From positions 480,001-512,000 of the forward strand of contig JAXLZO010000001.1 of NCBI GenBank assembly GCA_046350815.1: a DNA stretch of 32,000 nucleotides, written 5' to 3'. The DNA is from Candidatus Saccharimonadota bacterium. GTDB lineage: Bacteria > Patescibacteriota > Gracilibacteria > BD1-5 > UBA2023. Of the stretch, positions 15,524 through 29,223 are shown piece by piece. The notes under the pieces are model-generated. The model was not told the origin of the DNA, did no database searches, and worked only from the letters and a program-made list of their open reading frames with translations. Every line of letters starts with the position of its first letter. Position 1 is the stretch's first letter. The translations under genes and the position numbers were made by a program.

Positions 15524-15550
15524 AAAAACCCACCTTACGGTGGGTTTTTA
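15524..15550. terminator. Bidirectional intrinsic terminator between convergent genes.
   Basis: acccacc (15528-15534) / ggtgggt (15539-15545) with loop ttac, flanked by an A-run upstream and a T-run downstream. Confidence 0.75.
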
Positions 15551-16213
15551 ATGCTTCAATCCTTGTGGATTTATAATTGCAATAACCATTTTTTTTGCTC
15601 CCGAACAATCTTTTGTAAGTTCTCTTCTCTCTATAGGATGAATACTTTCTTGCTGCATCGTTATGAAAAGTGGATATGATTGATAATCATCGAGATTCTT
15701 TCCACTTTGAACAATTTCATAGAGCATTCATTCATTCTTTTGTTGATCTGGACATGTAGGAATAACTCGTTGAATCACCTCGGGATCTGCTCAAATGCTA
15801 TCTTCTTGACCTGAAGATCGGTACATCATTACTCCGTACCCTTCCGGATTGGTATTGGATGGATGATCTTGCCATGATTCATTTATCCAATCCATACGAT
15901 ACTCTCTTCAGCATATTTTCCATCAGAGATTTTCGTAGTATCAGATTAGTGAGTTATTCGTTCCGCTTACATCACGTCCATATCTCGTAGCAAGAATAAC
16001 GCCGTGTGAAAATGGATCATGAGCAACGTAGGATAGTAGTGTTCAGAGAACTTTACTGGCGAGTCATTTACCTCGATAATCCGGGTGTGTCCATACGTCC
16101 TCAAGATAGTGATATCTCTTTCCATTCAATTGTATTTCCTGTGCAAATGCACGTGAAATTTCCATTCCATCGAGCTCAATAGAAAATCGGTGTGTGTATT
16201 GGGATTCTACCAT
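15548..16213 (-). CDS. GNAT-family N-acetyltransferase with a C-terminal extension.
   Basis: This gene is absent from the standard-code track because of 7 in-frame TGA. Manual translation runs from ATG 16213 to TAA 15548-15550. It gives ...RYHYLEDVWTHPDYRGKGLASKVLGTLLSYVAHDPF..., which is GNAT motif A. The start overlaps the upstream stop in an ATGGTAG arrangement. Confidence 0.7.
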
Positions 16214-16860
16214 ATTTTCCAAGATGGACATGCTTGATGGACACGTATATGCGCAAAGCCTGGATGAAGGATAGCTCGCTCGATAGTACTACTGAGGGCT
16301 GCCATATCACGATCAACTACTGCTTCAGCAAAGCCTGCTCCAAAGAGCTTTGCAGCTGCCACAGGATCGAGAGGTGGAGTGACACTTCCTTGAGGCTCTG
16401 ACTTCGTCTTGATGCCGAGAGGGGTTGTCGGAGAAGATTGTCCTGTTGTGAGAGCATAATTCTCATTATCGAGGACAATATAGGTGATATCTACATTTCG
16501 ACGACATGCATGGAGAAAATGTCCAAGCCCAATTCCATATCCATCTCCGTCACCTCCAATAGCGATCACGGTAAGGTTTGGATTGGCAAGCTTCGCTCCG
16601 ATAGCAAATGGTACTGAGCGACCATGAAGAGTTTCAGCCGCATAACCATCGATATATTGTGAGATCTTTCCGCTACAACCAACACCTGACACAATAACAG
16701 TATTTTCACGTGGTATCTGGAGTTTTTTGAGGGTATTTCGGATTGCCATGAGTGCTAAAAAATCCCCACACCCTGGACACCATTGGATCGTATTGAGAGC
16801 TGATCGCATATGAAAGTTGAGAATATGGGAATTATATGCATCGAACAATAAATTGCACAC
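16207..16860 (-). CDS. 2-oxoacid:ferredoxin oxidoreductase beta (TPP-binding) subunit-like protein; it has no partner subunits nearby and is short.
   Basis: Motifs seen: WCPGCGDF, VSGVGCSGK, HGRSVPFAIGAKLANP, AIGGDGDGYGIGLGHFLHACRRNVDITYIVLDNENYALTTGQSSPTTP. The stop is TAG 16207-16209. The start is GTG 16860 or, more likely, ATG 16809. There is no in-frame TGA, and the gene is visibly more GC-rich than its neighbours. Confidence 0.75.
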   Translation of the reverse strand: MCNLLFDAYNSHILNFHMRSALNTIQWCPGCGDFLALMAIRNTLKKLQIPRENTVIVSGVGCSGKISQYIDGYAAETLHGRSVPFAIGAKLANPNLTVIAIGGDGDGYGIGLGHFLHACRRNVDITYIVLDNENYALTTGQSSPTTPLGIKTKSEPQGSVTPPLDPVAAAKLFGAGFAEAVVDRDMAALSSTIERAILHPGFAHIRVHQACPSWKIW

Positions 16861-23451: not shown

Positions 23452-23484
23452 CAAAAAAATGAAAGCCGCTGGATTGTAGCGACT
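23452..23484 (-). terminator. Intrinsic terminator after aspS.
   Basis: On the minus strand, GUCGCU-ACAAUCC-AGCGGC forms 6 bp with one G-U (plus-strand 23465-23483). It is followed by UUUCAUUUUUUU (plus-strand A-run 23452-23464). Confidence 0.55.
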
Positions 23485-23524
23485 TTTCTATTCGTGGCAA
23501 GTGTGGTCGATATTTCTTCATAAA

Positions 23525-25303
23525 CTACTCACTCCGTATCTCAATATAGAGTTCTTCAAGCTGCTTTTCATCTACCAAGCTCGGTGCACGCATCATAGCA
23601 TCTTCTGCTTTTCCACTCTTTGGGAACGCATAGATTTCGCGAATATTGGTCTCATCCGAGAGAATCATGAGTACTCGATCGAACCCGAATGCAAATCCAC
23701 CATGTGGAGGTACTCCGTACCCGAATGCTTCGTACATAGCTCCGAATTTTTCTTTTACCTCTGCTTCGCCTTTTCCAACGATTTCAAATGCTTTTACAAG
23801 TGCATTCAGATCATGGTTACGAATCGATCCAGAGAGAATCTCATATCCATTGAGTGCGAGATCATATTGACATCCGTAGATGGAGAGTGGATCCACTCCA
23901 GGAGCAAAGGCATCAACCCCACCATGAGGCATAGAGAATGGATTGTGTTCGAAATCATACGATCCATCATCTTTCTTCTCATACATAGGGAAGTCAGTCA
24001 CCCATACGAATACAAGACTGTCTTTGTCAGCGAGTGAGAGCATATCGCGCAGTGCAAGTCGAACTCCACCAAGAGCCTTATTCACGCTTTCACGAGTATC
24101 AGCCCCGAAGAAGATCATATCACCTACCTCTGCTCTGAGTTTTTCTGTAAGGGCAGTAATTTCTGTCTCAGAGAGAAACTTGAGTATAGGACTCTTGGGT
24201 CCATCAGCTTCATAGGTAACATAGGCGAGACCCTTTGCTCCATTTGCACGAGCAACATCAGTGATGCTATCAATTTGTGATCGACTCAGAGTTTTCCCAG
24301 GAAGCTTAAATGCCTTCACAACGCCACCAAAATCGAGTGCTCACTTGAACACGGAGAATGCTGAATCCTGAAAAATACTCGATACATCTTCGAAGTGAAG
24401 ATCAAATCGAAGATCTGGCTTGTCTGATCCATAGAGATCCTTTGCTTGAGTATGTGTGAGCCGGATGAATTGACCACTTTCTTCAAGTCGTGCAATGGTT
24501 TTTTGTGGTGCACTATGATGGGAGAGTTTCTTGATGAAGTCTTCTGCAACAGCGAAAATATCTTCTTGATCGACAAAGCTCATTTCACAATCTATCTGGT
24601 AGAACTCACATGAGTGCCGATCTGCACGAGGATCTTCATCACGAAAACATGGTGCAATCTGGAAATACTTATCCACTCCAGCTACCATGAGAAGTTGTTT
24701 GTACTGTTGCGGTGCTTGTGGGAGTGCATAGAACTTACCTGGATGCAAGCGGGATGGGATGAGATAGTCACGAGCCCCCTCGGGAGAAGACGATGTGAAT
24801 ATCGGAGTTTGTACTTCGAGAAATCATCGATCTGAAAAATACTCACGAGTAAACCGATTCATCTTTGCTCTCAGCTCAATCTTAGCTCGCATTGCAGGGC
24901 GTCTGAGATCGAGGTATCGATATTTGAATCGAACATCCTCAGAAGTATTGGTCTTGTCAGATATCTCAAACGGAGGGGTATTTGCCTTGGTGAGAATCTT
25001 GGCTTCGCTAATGAGCACTTCGATCTCCCCTGTTGCGATCTTTGCATTCGTTTGACCTTCAGGACGTGATCGCACGATCCCAGTAAAATTCACTACGTAT
25101 TCACCACGAGCAGAATCAGCAATAGTATATGCATCAGGATGAGATATTGGATCAAATACGGTCTGAGTGATACCATAGCGATCACGAAGATCGATAAATA
25201 TGACACCACCATGGTCTCGACGAGTATCTACCCAACCAGAGAGAGTAATAGTTTGCCCAATATGAGTTGCAGTGAGTTCACCACATGTATGAGTTCGAAG
25301 CAT
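23525..25303 (-). CDS. aspS: Aspartyl-tRNA synthetase (bacterial type, 592 aa).
   Basis: Track ORFs 23525-24319, 24341-24748 and 24824-25303 share one frame and are separated by two TGA. FSDR(TGA)FLEVQTP aligns with E. coli MDDHGFLDIETP. Class II motifs seen: [36 protein letters not shown]. Confidence 0.95.
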
Positions 25304-25332
25304 AAGAGGAAAGATTAAATATTTTTTATTTT

Positions 25333-25848
25333 TTAAGGATTTATACGTATCAGATAGTTTCGCTTGCGCTCACCACCATATTCCACATGTTTGGTGAAAA
25401 TACCACCATTTTTCTCGATAACTTTTGTGGAGGCAATGTTATCAGCGAAGCATGTGAGAAGAAGTTTATCAAGTCCGATTTTCTTGGCTTCTGCGATGCC
25501 AAGTCTGAAGGCTTCCGTAGCATATCATTTACCACGCTCAGATGGGCGTATAGCGTACTCGATATTGCCACCAACTTTTTGAAGTTCATCAAGACTCACT
25601 TTGTGCCGAAGATAGAGTCCTCAGAGGATACGATTATCCTGCATAATGAAGAAGAGTGTCGATGGAGGAGTCCATTTTGAAACGATGGTACGATTCGTCT
25701 CGGTAATATTGAAGAATGAGTCAAAATCATCTCCAGCAAAGAGTGCTCTTGGTGAAACATTGTTAATATCTTCCAGAAGCGACCATTCTGCAATGAGCTC
25801 TTCCCATTGATCTTTATGTGAGTAATTCGGTATAATGAGTTCTAACAT
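25333..25848 (-). CDS. GNAT-family acetyltransferase, paralogue A of a tandem trio.
   Basis: Manual translation from ATG 25848 to TAA 25333-25335 with TGA read as Gly. It gives MLELIIPNYSHKDQWEELIAEW...GGNIEYAIRPSERGKGYATEAFRLGIAEAKKIGLDKLLLTCFADNIAS.KVIEKNGG. Confidence 0.75.
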
Positions 25849-25859
25849 AAGATTGAGCG

Positions 25860-26369
25860 TTAAAGTAAATTGATCCAATATCTTCGTGATTTTACTCAGT
25901 CTCTTTGCATATATCATTCAAACTTTCATCCATTTTCCTCGATCACTTTTACAGAAGCAATATTGTCATGATCACATGTAATGAGTATGCGGTCGATTCA
26001 TAGATTCTTCGCTTCTTTGAGGGCGAGTCAGAGCATTTGTGTTGCATAGCCTTTTCGTCTCGCAGATGGTCGGATACCATACCCAATATGTCCTCATGTC
26101 TCAATCAATTTTGGATGATTGATATGATAACGAATCTGGATAGCTCAGAGGATATTAGGTCCTGTATCGTCAACAAGAAAGAAAAGAGTAGAGTTGATCC
26201 CTCATTCATTGTCTGTGAGATCCTTGGTGACAATACGAAGAAAATCTTCGTATGTTTCTCACATAAAGAGTTTTCAGGGAGAAGTGGGTATTTCATGATC
26301 TCTCCATTCTCGTATCATCTCGATGCATTGATTCTTATGAGATTCATTGGGGAATTCCAGTTTGAGCAT
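25860..26369 (-). CDS. GNAT-family acetyltransferase, paralogue B.
   Basis: This gene is invisible in the standard-code track because of about 12 TGA. Manual translation runs from ATG 26369 to TAA 25860-25862. It gives MLKLEFPNESHKNQCIEMIREW...GGHIGYGIRPSARRKGYATQMLGLALKEAKNLGIDRILITCDHDNIAS.KVIEENGG. Confidence 0.75.
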
Positions 26370-26379
26370 ATTTTGTGAG

Positions 26380-26892
26380 TTAGACTGTAATCCAATATCT
26401 TCTTACCTTTTTCCTATTAAAATCAGCATGTCTCTCAAATGTTCATCCATTTGCTTCGATAGTACGGTAGGATCATACATTTTCATCAAGGCAGGTAAGC
26501 AATATTTTTTCTATTTCTAGGTTTTTTGCCTCTTGTTTTCCCAATCTCAGTGCTTCCGTTGCATAACCTTTTTTCCTTTCGGATGGGCGGATGCCATACC
26601 CGATGTGCCCACCTATTTCTCTCAAGAAATCATTTTCTATATTATGACGGATATCGAGAGCGCCGAGTATGCGATCTCGAGTCGAGTCTATGATAAAAAA
26701 GAGAGATGCTGGAACTCTGCCCTCTGGTGGATTATCACGAGCATCTCTTGTGATTTGGAGGAATTCTTCATAATTCGCACCTGCGAAGAGATTGTCAGGA
26801 TCAGTAGGGATGATTTCATGTTGCCCCCATTCCTTAATCATCTCAATATATCGATCTTTGTGGGATTCGTTCGGAAATTTAAGTTTGAGCAT
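26380..26892 (-). CDS. GNAT-family acetyltransferase, paralogue C.
   Basis: This is the internal part of track ORF 26473-27063, running from ATG 26892 through TGA to TAA 26380-26382. It gives MLKLKFPNESHKDRYIEMIKEW...GGHIGYGIRPSERKKGYATEALRLGKQEAKNLEIEKILLTC. Confidence 0.75.
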
Positions 26893-26917
26893 AATAACGA
26901 GATTAGTCTTAATATTT

Positions 26918-27262
26918 TTAATATCCTCGATCCTTGTTTTTCTGCACTTTTCGCTGGAGTGCCTCATCGAGACTCGTAACTCCAGTGGATTTGAGTAACA
27001 GAAGAAGGGTGATGAGTACATCGCTTGCTTCATTTTCAAGATCCTCGATACAAAACGCATCAACTTTCCTTTGAGAAAACGAGCATTTTGTGAATTTTCT
27101 CACTTCTGCCGCGAGCTCACCGACTTCTTCCGTGAGACACGAGAGTGCCGAGAGGGTATGCTCTGTCTGAGAGAGCGATTTCTTGATCGTGAGTTCAGGG
27201 GTTTTATCATGAATATGATCAATATATTGCATGAGCTCGTTCCACACGGTTTCTGAGATCAT
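26918..27262 (-). CDS. MazG-like nucleoside-triphosphate pyrophosphohydrolase (single-domain, 114 aa).
   Basis: Track ORF 26918-27271; ATG 27262 is preferred as the start. Motifs seen: LTEEVGELAAEVRK (the EExGE motif) and LENEASDVLITLLLL...LDEAL..K..KN..R. Confidence 0.7.
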   Translation of the reverse strand: MISETVWNELMQYIDHIHDKTPELTIKKSLSQTEHTLSALSCLTEEVGELAAEVRKFTKCSFSQRKVDAFCIEDLENEASDVLITLLLLLKSTGVTSLDEALQRKVQKNKDRGY

Positions 27263-27440
27263 AAAAAGCACACAAAAGAAATAAAAACTTTCATGTGCTT
27301 CGGTTCGATAGTGTGTCGAAAGGTGCCACCGAGGCTGTACTTGATTGATATTCTATGACGGGAATCTCCCGGAAGGTTCTACTCGGCAATACCTTTCTTC
27401 CTTCAGCTCGCGGGTGTTGGCCGCTCAGATGCTTTTATTA
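27263..27440 (-). promoter_or_regulatory. T-box-like riboswitch leader with competing antiterminator and terminator (or sequestrator) helices.
   Basis: Read on the minus strand: helix A1 GCCUCGG (plus-strand 27329-27335), then the bulge UGGCACC(U), which matches the T-box core GGUGGNACC. Helix A2 is UUCGA-CACACUA-UCGAA (27304-27320), and the A1 3' strand is CCGAAGC (27297-27303). A competing 13-bp hairpin AAGCACAUGAAAG / CUUUUGUGUGCUU (27266-27300) shares AAGC with A1. It is followed by UUU and the ATG of the MazG-like gene. The region is clearly more GC-rich than the surrounding intergenic DNA. I could not define Stem I or the specifier by eye. Confidence 0.6.
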
Positions 27441-27446
27441 CTAAGA

Positions 27447-27474
27447 AGTTTAGGAACCTGCACAAGAAAGTCAA
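27447..27474 (-). promoter_or_regulatory. Sigma70-like promoter for the T-box leader.
   Basis: On the minus strand: TTGACT (plus-strand 27469-27474), 16-nt spacer, TAAACT (27447-27452). Confidence 0.4.
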
Positions 27475-27561: not shown

Positions 27562-29223
27562 ATGTTAGATAAAAGTAAATTATCAGATGCAAGAGAAGAA
27601 TTACCATACGATAATTTTGCTAAGAATTTCAACTTCTATGATCATCTTCTTACCTCCATTGAGACAAGCTATTTGTGGAGAGGATTTGCTGATGAAGCCT
27701 TTAAACATTATGTTTGTACACGAGATGAAATTTTGCGACTTGATCTTGTTGATGATGTGGCAAATGGACGGATCATATCAATGCCCGTAAAGAATGTGGT
27801 CACGAAAAAACAGACAGATGTTGCAGAAATACTGCGTCGTGACATTATTGGGCAGGAAAAAGGTGAGGATATGACTGATTGAGTTGAGTTCCTCAGAGGA
27901 CTCCTCCTTGCTCGATCGATACTCATACCTGAGGGTATTTATTTTAAGATCCAAAGATTTTTTCATCACGTACATCCGGATTATCATAGTCAACGATTTG
28001 ATCTTACTTTGAGTCAATGATTCGCAGGTTTAGAGAAAAAATTTGCACATATACTCAAATCGCACCATAATTTTATCACAGTTCCTCAAGATGAAGATCA
28101 GTGATTTGAGTATGAAAATAGATCTCTCCTGCAATATATTCAAAGTTCACTTGAGGAAATCTGATCTTATCACGGTAATATCACAGAGCTTTCTTCTCGG
28201 CAGCGTTATGCTTTTCTCGTGCTGAAACGTATTTGTCGTGAATTTATCTACGCGTCTCAGGCACAACTTGAACTTCATAAGAAGATTGCAGATTGGGTCA
28301 AGCAGAAAAAAAAGCAAGGAAAGTCAGAAAAATCAGATACTACCTTTACTCGTCTTTCACAGGAAAAATCTAATTTCAATGACACGAGAGAAGACAAGGC
28401 TCTCGAATACATTTACCAGTGTTTTGTTCGTATTGATAATATACGCACAAAGAATTATGAGAGAAGGACTACACTCTGAAAAATCATTGTCAGAAAAAAT
28501 GACTCTACGGAAGAGTTGCAAATCATGAAAGAGCGATTAAATATTATTCAGTCTCAATATCCAGATCTTGAGGAAACTTGTCGGTATATCTCTGAAAAAA
28601 TAGAAGAAATTGCTGGTATCAAATCTCTATGAATAGAAAGAAAATCTCGTGAGTTGGTGGAGTCCATTCTTCAATGAGATGATTTGTTGCAAGATGCGAA
28701 TTCCTGAAATAATGAAACGTACGAAGAGAGTATTATCACTCGAAAGACGATTCGCTCTATTGATAGATATATTCAATATTTGGGTACTGTTTGATCTTCA
28801 ACCAATGATACAAAATCAAATAGTGTCTGAGATGGGCTCACTTTCAATCAGACAATTCTTCCATTTTTGCGTTATATGATCAATGGTATACGCTCAGGAA
28901 AATTTTCTTCAACATCGTTGAATATTTCACAGATATTTGTTGCTTTCAAGGAAGATTTTGCTCATTCATGATCAAAGAATGGATCAAGATTACTCGAAGT
29001 ATACAAAGAGTTCTTTATGGAACAGAACGTTCAAGGTAATATTGTTACAATTTTACCCCGGATGACATTTGTACTCGATAATATTGGTGATTTTATTGGA
29101 TGATCTGCACATGGAAATCGTCAGGGTTGTGCTGTTATTACTCGTCGGAGTCGAGAATTCTTCGCAGGACCAGAGTGGAAAAAAATAGTAAGAGAGTTTC
29201 CAAAAGATTCTATTCAAAACTAA
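27562..29223 (+). CDS. Hypothetical protein of 553 aa with no domain I recognise.
   Basis: One frame joins track ORFs 27562-27882 and 28219-28479 through many TGA, ending at TAA 29221-29223. The sequence is charged and looks predominantly helical. Confidence 0.65.

Follow-up and report, generated by a model that had tools for sequence, protein, structure and literature searches.

A predicted compact T-box leader and a variable gene slot upstream of aspS in Gracilibacteria with genetic code 25

The aspS unit and its genes

The window analyzed here is a 32,000-nucleotide (nt) stretch of a genome deposited as Candidatus Saccharimonadota bacterium and placed by GTDB in the Gracilibacteria (GenBank assembly GCA_046350815.1, contig JAXLZO010000001.1, positions 480,001 to 512,000 of the forward strand). 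Its minus strand carries the aspS unit, which includes, in order, a promoter-like site, a predicted T-box leader (27436-27263), mazG, gnatA, gnatB, gnatC and aspS, the gene for aspartyl-tRNA synthetase (AspRS) (Table 1). All coordinates are window positions, and TGA is read as Gly (genetic code 25) in all gene calls. Translation with table 11 fragments the region into short open reading frames (ORFs), whereas code 25 yields five intact minus-strand genes. The gaps between these genes (25, 10, 11 and 29 nt from mazG to aspS) are exactly those of a preliminary description made from the DNA sequence alone, and Pfam upholds its assignment of a MazG-like protein, three GNAT acetyltransferases and AspRS.

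The five proteins are assigned with differing precision. AspRS is of the bacterial type, with an N-terminal oligonucleotide-binding (OB) fold, a class II catalytic core and a GAD insertion. The MazG-like protein scores 32.4 bits against Pfam PF03819 (cut-off 22), and its EEVGE at residues 45-49 corresponds to the EExxE metal-binding motif. All three GNATs match Pfam Acetyltransf_3 and Acetyltransf_1 (1e-9 to 8e-15). NCBIfam assigns no family to MazG or to the GNATs. The use of TGA is uneven, as it encodes 10 of the 17 glycines of gnatB (0.59, the maximum of the window) compared to 0.05 of those of aspS and 0.00-0.38 in the other genes.

Table 1. Features of the aspS unit, listed from its 5' end on the minus strand (aa, amino acids; bp, base pairs; K-turn, kink-turn; MFE, minimum free energy; NTP, nucleoside triphosphate).
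Feature	Position	Strand	Basis
Promoter-like site: TTGACT (27474-27469), 16-nt spacer, TAAACT (27452-27447)	27447..27474	-	Consensus scan, 9/12 matches
Stem I, short: base helix AGC/GCU, K-turn-like GA/GA, 4-bp GCGG/CCGC, 7-nt apical loop CCAACAC	27405..27433	-	Alignment, covariation
Stem II: 5-bp base helix GAAGG/CCUUC, purine-rich internal loop GAAGAA opposite AGUAGAAC (S-turn-like), variable apical hairpin	27372..27404	-	Alignment, covariation
Stem IIA: hairpin CGGGA...UCCCG, F-box-like CCGUCA at 27361-27356	27356..27371	-	Covariation
Discriminator/antiterminator: A1 GCCUCGG/CCGAAGC, 7-nt bulge UGGCACC (27328-27322), A2 UUCGA/UCGAA	27296..27335	-	Alignment, covariation
Predicted leader intrinsic terminator: 13-bp stem AAGCACAUGAAAG / CUUUUGUGUGCUU, 9-nt loop, U-run	27263..27300	-	MFE fold, hairpin scan
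mazG: single-domain MazG-like NTP pyrophosphohydrolase, 114 aa, EEVGE motif	26918..27262	-	Pfam PF03819 1e-7
gnatA: GNAT acetyltransferase, 170 aa, A-clade	26380..26892	-	Pfam Acetyltransf_3, tree
gnatB: GNAT acetyltransferase, 169 aa, B-clade, 10 in-frame TGA	25860..26369	-	Pfam, tree
gnatC: GNAT acetyltransferase, 171 aa, C-clade, motif GGNIEYAI replacing GGHIGYGI	25333..25848	-	Pfam, tree
aspS: bacterial-type aspartyl-tRNA synthetase, 592 aa	23525..25303	-	Pfam tRNA-synt_2 3e-106, GAD, OB fold
Predicted closing intrinsic terminator: 9-bp stem, 7-nt loop; hairpin 23486-23462, T-run to ~23452	23452..23486	-	Hairpin scans

A compact leader with T-box architecture

Relatives of the unit were gathered by a metagenome scan with the AspRS protein, which returned 80 loci of 53-95% identity (cited below by number where needed, e.g., L086). 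In about 40 of the aspS loci examined, the 9-mer GGTGGCACC lies upstream of aspS on the aspS strand, while the opposite strand carries GGTGGCACC once and the variant GGTGGAACC twice. A second motif, GGTGGAACC, found ~300 nt upstream in L095-L118, falls within the apparent coding sequence of the upstream gene and is treated as a chance match. Covariation was scored for 19 aligned leaders on a hand-drawn T-box structure, which replaced the RNAalifold structure since the latter mis-paired the A1 region. On this structure, pairs are formed in 95.6% of cells, and compensatory changes occur at 17 of the 27 pairs. The observed values are reached in none of 500 shuffles, and pairing is 30-45% in slid controls. 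A long-range pairing between the K-turn strand and the linker (CUUGA/UCAAG) covaries poorly and was dropped.

The individual elements are conserved to differing degrees. In Stem I, the K-turn pattern AGC-N3-4-GA-G(helix)...(helix)C-GA-GCU is kept among leaders, the base helix covaries from A-U to G-C and all four pairs of the upper helix show compensatory changes. All five base-helix pairs of Stem II do likewise, while the two internal strands, GAAGAA and UAGAAC, vary little or not at all and would be compatible with a loop-E motif. Stem IIA is paired in 100% of cells, with compensatory changes in three of five pairs, and its F-box reads CCGU(C/U)A across leaders; the CCGUCA of the window is the exact F-box sequence quoted for T-boxes (PMC7583486). 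An A-rich linker separates Stem IIA and the F-box from helix A1, which is 85% paired, and A2 shows compensatory changes in four of five pairs. The sequence GGUGGCACC, including the bulge UGGCACC, does not vary among 36 leaders. The terminator shares part of its 5' arm (27300-27288) with the 3' strand of A1 (27303-27296), such that terminator and antiterminator are mutually exclusive, and an equivalent hairpin with U-run is found at the terminator position in every relative.

A covariance model built from the 19 leaders (R1) detects 34 in the first set of loci, that of the window included (129 bits, E 2e-26), and three more in L170-L172, with E from 1e-14 to 3e-30. Every R1 leader lies on the strand of aspS and upstream of it, and a single architecture is common to 36 related leaders that precede aspS in Gracilibacteria. 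R1 finds no similar leader near other genes or in Clostridia loci where a GNAT gene adjoins aspS. Among Gracilibacteria-like aspS loci, about half are without an R1-detectable leader and may have a different leader or an unregulated aspS; in ~42 of these loci (among L108-L125 and L134-L169, with at least 300 nt upstream) neither an R1 leader nor a UGGNACC motif is seen near aspS.

The hallmarks of T-boxes include the K-turn, a Specifier that short Stem I forms carry in their apical loop, the S-turn of Stem II, the F-box CCGUCA and a 7-nt UGGN-ACC bulge (PMC7583486). Transcriptional T-boxes as a rule require a long Stem I whose platform binds the tRNA elbow, while the distal double T-loop platform (IDTM) is missing from ultrashort Stem I forms, which are mostly translational leaders of actinobacterial ileS (PMC7583486). 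The leader could be a conserved 5' element of another type, for instance one bound by a protein or acting as a simple attenuator, with the match of GGUGGCACC to a T-box bulge a coincidence. The Rfam T-box model RF00230 matches at no threshold tried, and Stem I has only 4 bp in addition to the K-turn. By contrast, seven independent hallmarks co-occur in canonical order with covariation, namely the K-turn, a codon plus purine that match the aminoacyl-tRNA synthetase (aaRS), a toggle of that codon between Asn and Asp, the S-turn-like Stem II, CCGUCA, the UGGN-ACC bulge and an overlapping terminator; the alternative is very improbable. RF00230 is an operational test of the long-Stem-I class and not a defining feature of the T-box mechanism, and its failure is not taken as proof of absence given the strong comparative structure. 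Thus, although Rfam gives no match, the architecture and covariation in relatives bear out the earlier identification, and the leader appears to be a genuine T-box of an unusual compact subclass, in which an ultrashort Stem I is joined to a 13-bp hairpin with U-run.

The mazG ATG (27262-27260) abuts the U-run of the leader terminator (27265-27263) without a spacer, as it does in L086, L088, L170 and L171. The hairpin would also cover any mazG translation-initiation region, which raises the possibility of dual control.

Specifier codons and tRNA choice

The apical loop of Stem I reads NN(A/G)ACAN in 33 leaders, with a Specifier of AAC in 30 and GAC in three, and A always next. In the window the Specifier is AAC (27418-27416, Asn), followed by A. 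These codons correspond to the two tRNAs that a non-discriminating AspRS would serve. From the switch between Asn and Asp codons, even among the alleles of one species, it can be inferred that one AspRS probably serves both tRNAs.

Two leader alleles are noted among four strains with aspS genes of 97-99% nt identity, one in L095 (1710-1858) and L118 (3286-3434), the other in L097 (4635-4783) and L106 (3293-3434). Two of the four strains carry the GAC (Asp) leader and two the AAC (Asn) leader, and the alleles also differ in the apex of Stem II. Each allele occurs both with and without the 1.5-kb cassette described below, giving four combinations.

Transcription of the unit

The promoter-like site has counterparts in relatives, where TTGACT or TTGCAT and a TATAAT-like hexamer stand at the same distance 5' of the leader. 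Hairpin scans detect no terminator-like site on the minus strand from 25304 to 27262. The promoter-like site (27474-27447) and leader at the head, the terminator behind aspS (23486-23462) and the uninterrupted interval between them are therefore placed as the preliminary description had them. Relatives are built similarly: in 11 cargo-bearing loci scanned, hairpins of at least 8 bp with a T-run are confined to the T-box terminator and the site immediately following aspS, and in L102, L105, L106 and L146 the same scan finds none after aspS. The region between leader and aspS contains only 5-6 bp hairpins in other loci, of the kind that also occur inside aspS, and none in the window. In every configuration, the intervening genes are co-directional with aspS, tightly packed and free of strong terminators. 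Tight gaps, shared direction and strong terminators at the two ends only make it very probable that the accessory genes are co-regulated by tRNA charging, as had been suggested at the outset, and the anatomy of the unit indicates that the five genes are most likely co-transcribed as one transcription unit.

Conservation of the leader points the same way. Between the window and L086 the leaders are 99.4% identical, while the synonymous sites of aspS differ by 24%, and in L086, L088, L170 and L171 an aspS-appropriate Specifier is retained though the leader lies 2-3 kb from aspS. There would be no reason to keep such a Specifier at this distance unless the leader still controls aspS.

An adjacency without co-regulation would account for the same layout if the T-box controlled mazG only or were a relic, the GNAT genes and aspS used internal promoters and the compactness reflected genome streamlining. 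Small genomes pack genes tightly, and sigma-70-like hexamer pairs are present inside gnatA, gnatB and gnatC; however, promoter-like sites are not enriched over shuffled sequence (15 observed vs 11.7 +/- 3.4). The conservation of the leader far above that of synonymous sites, the Specifier kept 2-3 kb from aspS and the co-directional cargo without strong terminators all run counter to this explanation, which is improbable.

Upstream of the leader, a divergent 553-aa ORF (27562-29223, plus strand) with no Pfam match on record is a conserved neighbor in L001, L086 and L088. The 300-nt intergenic region between this ORF and the aspS unit must contain the promoters of both.

A variable slot between leader and aspS

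In 17 loci, the leader stands directly before aspS, with 20-38 nt from the end of its terminator U-run to the start codon (ATG) of the gene, and in four further loci the distance is 75-153 nt. The premise that a T-box normally sits directly upstream of the synthetase gene thus holds for this clade. At least 11 other configurations have cargo inserted between leader and aspS. Outside the lineage of the window, the slot includes: (i) HD-type proteins, alone (L101), with a membrane protein (L102), as HD_3/YfbR-like plus GNAT (L105) or as HD_3, GNAT and a protein of unknown type (L107), (ii) GNAT plus a DUF4357/GIY-YIG protein (L096, L106 and L118; PADLOC PDC-S14, 7e-81), (iii) a Fic protein (L146; PDC-S04, 8e-90), (iv) MazG with a predicted membrane protein without Pfam match and NYN (L172) and (v) a DsbA-like protein (L100) or a DUF4440 protein (L099).

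The lineage of the window, defined by aspS genes 85-100% identical, has six arrangements. The mazG-A-B-C order of the window (A, B and C being the GNAT clades) compares to mazG-Mrr_cat-B-C in L086 (Mrr_cat, PDC-S02, 5e-83), mazG-Mrr_cat-B-B'-C in L088, mazG-T5orf172-C in L170 (PDC-S57, 1e-70), mazG-B-like-A-B in L171 and A-B-B''-C-small ORF in L092, where the 5' end of the contig is missing. Turnover is also seen among closer strains: of the four with aspS genes 97-99% nt-identical (L095, L097, L106 and L118), two have a 1.5-kb GNAT plus PDC-S14 cassette right after the terminator. The four PADLOC families of the relatives' slots (PDC-S02, S04, S14 and S57) are unvalidated defense candidates only; the mazG and GNATs of the window have no PADLOC match and only weak, generic PHROGs matches. 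No mobile-element genes are seen in the slots.

Synonymous divergence (dS) is uneven within genome pairs. Between the window and L088 it is 0.52 for aspS, 0.33 for gnatC and 1.81 for gnatB; between the window and L170 it is 0.46 for aspS and 1.37 for mazG; and between the window and L092 it is 1.44 for gnatA. This unevenness suggests a mosaic built by recombination, with allelic replacement of cargo.

MazG and GNAT proteins of the slot

The nearest solved structure to the MazG-like protein is YpjD of Bacillus subtilis (2gta, E 0.005). MazG enzymes of the Escherichia coli type have two tandem MazG domains and are ~260 aa in length. The protein of the window is instead a single YpjD-like domain of 114 aa, and the earlier analogy to E. 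coli MazG and its action on NTPs and alarmones is not supported on these grounds. Ten homologues were found, and every context examined has the order leader, mazG, further genes and aspS.

The three GNATs fall into three separate old clades. Pairwise identity is 56% for A-B, 46% for A-C and 43% for B-C, which reverses the earlier impression that B and C are closest and A diverged; C is the outlier. The A-clade joins slot GNATs of three lineages, with gnatA grouping with those of L092, L105, L107 and L096. The gnatB protein is sister to free-standing Gracilibacteria GNATs of L006-L009, and gnatC is a long branch whose relatives in L086, L088, L092 and L170 are 95-96% identical. The gnatC motif GGNIEYAI departs from the near-invariant GGHIGYGI of the family, yet the gene is constrained like aspS. 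Ratios of nonsynonymous to synonymous substitution (dN/dS) are 0.05 for gnatA, 0.10-0.16 for gnatB, 0.05-0.09 for gnatC and 0.14-0.35 for mazG, compared to 0.05 for aspS, and by this measure mazG and the GNAT genes are maintained under purifying selection. The triplication is thus old, as proposed earlier, while its maintenance as a set is not borne out, since close relatives carry one to four GNATs in differing combinations.

The substrate of the GNATs is not inferable by homology, as NCBIfam, PDB sequence and profile searches and Foldseek reveal no characterized or closely related solved relative. The structure check envisaged earlier was made on a model of a 54%-identical GNAT homologue (predicted local distance difference test score, pLDDT, of 91) and not on the GNATs of the window. 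This model displays GNAT topology and returns hundreds of GNAT matches in Foldseek, of which the best appear generic (SpeG and a putative PAT; template modeling (TM) score about 0.65, 15-19% identity), such that it points to no substrate; MccE is absent from the top 50. Matches to RimL are weak both by PDB profile search (E 0.025-0.03) and in NCBIfam. The wider family is common in Firmicutes (~40% identity), and clustering of the neighbors of 70 homologues outside Gracilibacteria reveals no conserved partner and no aaRS context. A literature search on COG3981 returned nothing relevant.

The suggestion that the GNATs are toxins of the TacT kind, acting on aminoacyl-tRNA, was ruled out, as no antitoxin gene is found beside any GNAT and the 10-29 nt gaps hold no ORF.

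Elsewhere in the window, a 227-aa ORF (15548-16231, minus strand) has a GNAT-like acetyl-CoA motif, HPDYRGKGLASK, and is positionally unrelated to the aspS unit. In a Gracilibacteria metagenome-assembled genome (MAG), a transfer-messenger RNA (tmRNA) gene with tag peptide AAVKSAFTPSFALTA (L008, 4886-5335) is noted ~0.7 kb upstream of a free-standing B-clade GNAT.

Does the cargo act on AspRS or its tRNAs?

The preliminary description proposed a dedicated module for starvation or translation quality. In one version of such a module, MazG and the GNATs would detoxify aspartyl-adenylate mimics (e.g., processed microcin C) by N-acetylation and nucleotide hydrolysis, and in another they would modify aminoacyl-tRNA; in either, the genes would sit under the T-box since uncharged tRNA accumulates when AspRS is blocked. 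Processed microcin C inhibits AspRS and is acetylated by MccE and RimL (PMC4964394), and the GNATs of the unit belong to Acetyltransf_3 and match RimL, if weakly. A hydrolase comes first in three lineages, A-clade GNATs occur in the slots of three lineages, a same-family GNAT stands just upstream of aspS in two Clostridia loci and all genes are under purifying selection. By contrast, most leaders drive aspS alone, the cargo is of mixed type and varies within a species, GNAT homologues elsewhere lack both a conserved neighbor and an aaRS context, Foldseek matches are generic only and lack MccE among the top 50, and no antitoxin gene is present that would make the GNATs TacT-type toxins. The content of the slot is too varied and fluid to support a purpose-built module for tRNA quality or starvation: it holds other cargo or nothing in relatives, and varies even between strains with 97-99% identical aspS. 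The dedicated module is thus unlikely.

In the two Clostridia loci, which are syntenic and derived from MAGs (L013, 4605-9325; L077, 5995-10223), the same-family GNAT is directly upstream of aspS, and downstream of aspS come two ORFs (92 aa and ~487 aa) whose lengths match those of gatC and gatA. No T-box is detected in these loci, either by Rfam or by R1.

Proposed mechanism

The reading preferred here, with a probability of roughly 0.7, is that the leader is a compact but genuine T-box and that the four accessory genes are functional cargo on the aspS mRNA, induced by falling charging of tRNA-Asn/Asp and not necessarily acting on tRNA or AspRS. Uncharged tRNA-Asn (anticodon GUU) would pair with the AAC Specifier in the apical loop of the 4-bp Stem I, with the K-turn, the S-turn-like loop of Stem II and Stem IIA/F-box expected to aid the Specifier-anticodon pairing. 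The free 3' end of the tRNA would pair with UGGC of the 7-nt bulge, locking the antiterminator. Charged tRNA would be unable to pair with the bulge, and the overlapping 13-bp terminator would form, stopping transcription just before the mazG ATG. As the accessory genes would be carried on the aspS mRNA, they would be induced when tRNA-Asn/Asp charging falls.

The ancestral order is proposed to be a leader followed directly by aspS. In several lineages, co-directional, terminator-free genes would then have lodged between the leader terminator and aspS. In the lineage of the window, mazG always comes first, followed by fast-turnover GNATs and nuclease-like defense candidates and then aspS.

Several observations weigh against this interpretation. 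RF00230 has no match at the gathering score in the window and 28 related loci, nor at E<=10 for the window leader and the best-scoring relative. Stem I is without the IDTM and consists of only a 3-bp base, K-turn, 4-bp helix and 7-nt loop, and no partner for a IIB pseudoknot is identified in the leader alignment. Bacterial tRNA-Asp and tRNA-Asn carry G73, and no gene for either tRNA occurs in the window or 60 related loci for comparison of the anticodon and discriminator base. Co-transcription is deduced from anatomy, and several sigma-70-like hexamer pairs lie within gnatA, gnatB and gnatC on the minus strand, though they are no commoner than in shuffles. Finally, a nucleotide hydrolase (MazG, HD_3 or HD) first after the leader and an A-clade GNAT in the slot recur in three lineages, and a same-family GNAT adjoins aspS in one Clostridia lineage. 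Both patterns suggest that the cargo is in part non-random, which leaves room for a speculative link to AspRS inhibitors of the microcin C type.

A bolder proposal, which is doubtful, extends the preferred reading. The aspS T-box would have been co-opted as a stress-inducible platform that expresses AspRS together with the nuclease-type defense genes, nucleotide hydrolases and GNATs loaded into the slot, with MazG or HD hydrolases and A-clade GNATs forming a resistance pair against aspartyl-adenylate mimics. The fall in charging could be caused by a phage that takes over translation or by competitors' peptide-nucleotide antibiotics that target AspRS. As a separate point, no T-box acting by transcription termination would have been shown before this leader to function with an ultrashort Stem I and without a tRNA-elbow platform.

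Comparison with known systems

The proteins and the slot resemble known systems in part. The MazG-like protein is similar to the single-domain YpjD type of B. subtilis in its length (~115 aa), all-alpha MazG domain and EExxE motif, but is very divergent in sequence (E 0.005), and the contexts examined all place it at the head of an aspS unit. The GNATs share Acetyltransf_3 with RimL and the C-terminal domain of MccE, and their genes stand in the unit of aspS, whose product is the target of microcin C, while the similarity is remote (RimL, E about 0.03). The GNAT fold and ~170-aa length are also those of the toxins TacT, AtaT and ItaT; by contrast, no adjacent antitoxin (ribbon-helix-helix (RHH) or DUF1778) or PADLOC match is noted, and the three tandem GNATs are under purifying selection. 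The slot is reminiscent of defense hotspots, such as the core hotspots of Pseudomonas aeruginosa (PMC10250203), in which a fixed site with conserved flanks holds differing accessory and defense-type genes. Here, however, the site is inside what is likely a riboswitch-controlled operon of an essential gene, between the terminator and the aaRS gene, and the defense families are candidates only. In Firmicutes, T-box operons with the synthetase gene in a later position (PMC2494555) likewise have one leader, a multigene unit and a downstream aaRS, whereas here the partners differ from strain to strain and include MazG, GNATs and nuclease-like genes.

Literature searches returned no paper that combines 'T-box riboswitch' with a defense, defense-island or anti-phage term or with Gracilibacteria, or 'T-box' with Patescibacteria or candidate phyla radiation. 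T-box surveys based on RF00230 would undercount, missing a whole clade of leaders in a candidate-phylum lineage with an altered code. A natural minimal T-box of 141 nt would also lend itself well to kinetic work. The stretch from a riboswitch terminator to the essential gene behind it may serve as a landing site that puts accessory and candidate defense genes under the control of tRNA charging.

The leader itself resembles two known T-box classes in part. Similarly to canonical transcriptional T-boxes (RF00230; e.g., B. subtilis tyrS and glyQS), it has a K-turn, a Specifier followed by a purine, a UGGN-ACC bulge, a competing terminator and predicted control of an aaRS. It differs from them in that Stem I has 4 bp and exposes the codon at its apical loop, without the Specifier side bulge, AG bulge and distal-loop platform, and most leaders of the class are without Stem III. 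With the translational ileS T-boxes of actinobacteria (Mycobacterium tuberculosis and Nocardia farcinica; 6UFG, 6UFM; PMC7583486) it shares the short Stem I, apical-loop Specifier, K-turn and F-box CCGUCA, and its Stem II has an S-turn-like loop where theirs has an S-turn. While the ileS leaders use a Shine-Dalgarno sequestrator, the leader of the window has a hairpin and U-run that are read as a transcription terminator; its Asn/Asp codon, aspS gene and code-25 Gracilibacteria host also set it apart, as does the IIB pairing, which was not found. Thus, while the T-box mechanism is known, what appears new is a compact, terminator-coupled class undetected by Rfam, Asn and Asp Specifier alleles within one species and a cargo slot with four candidate defense families.

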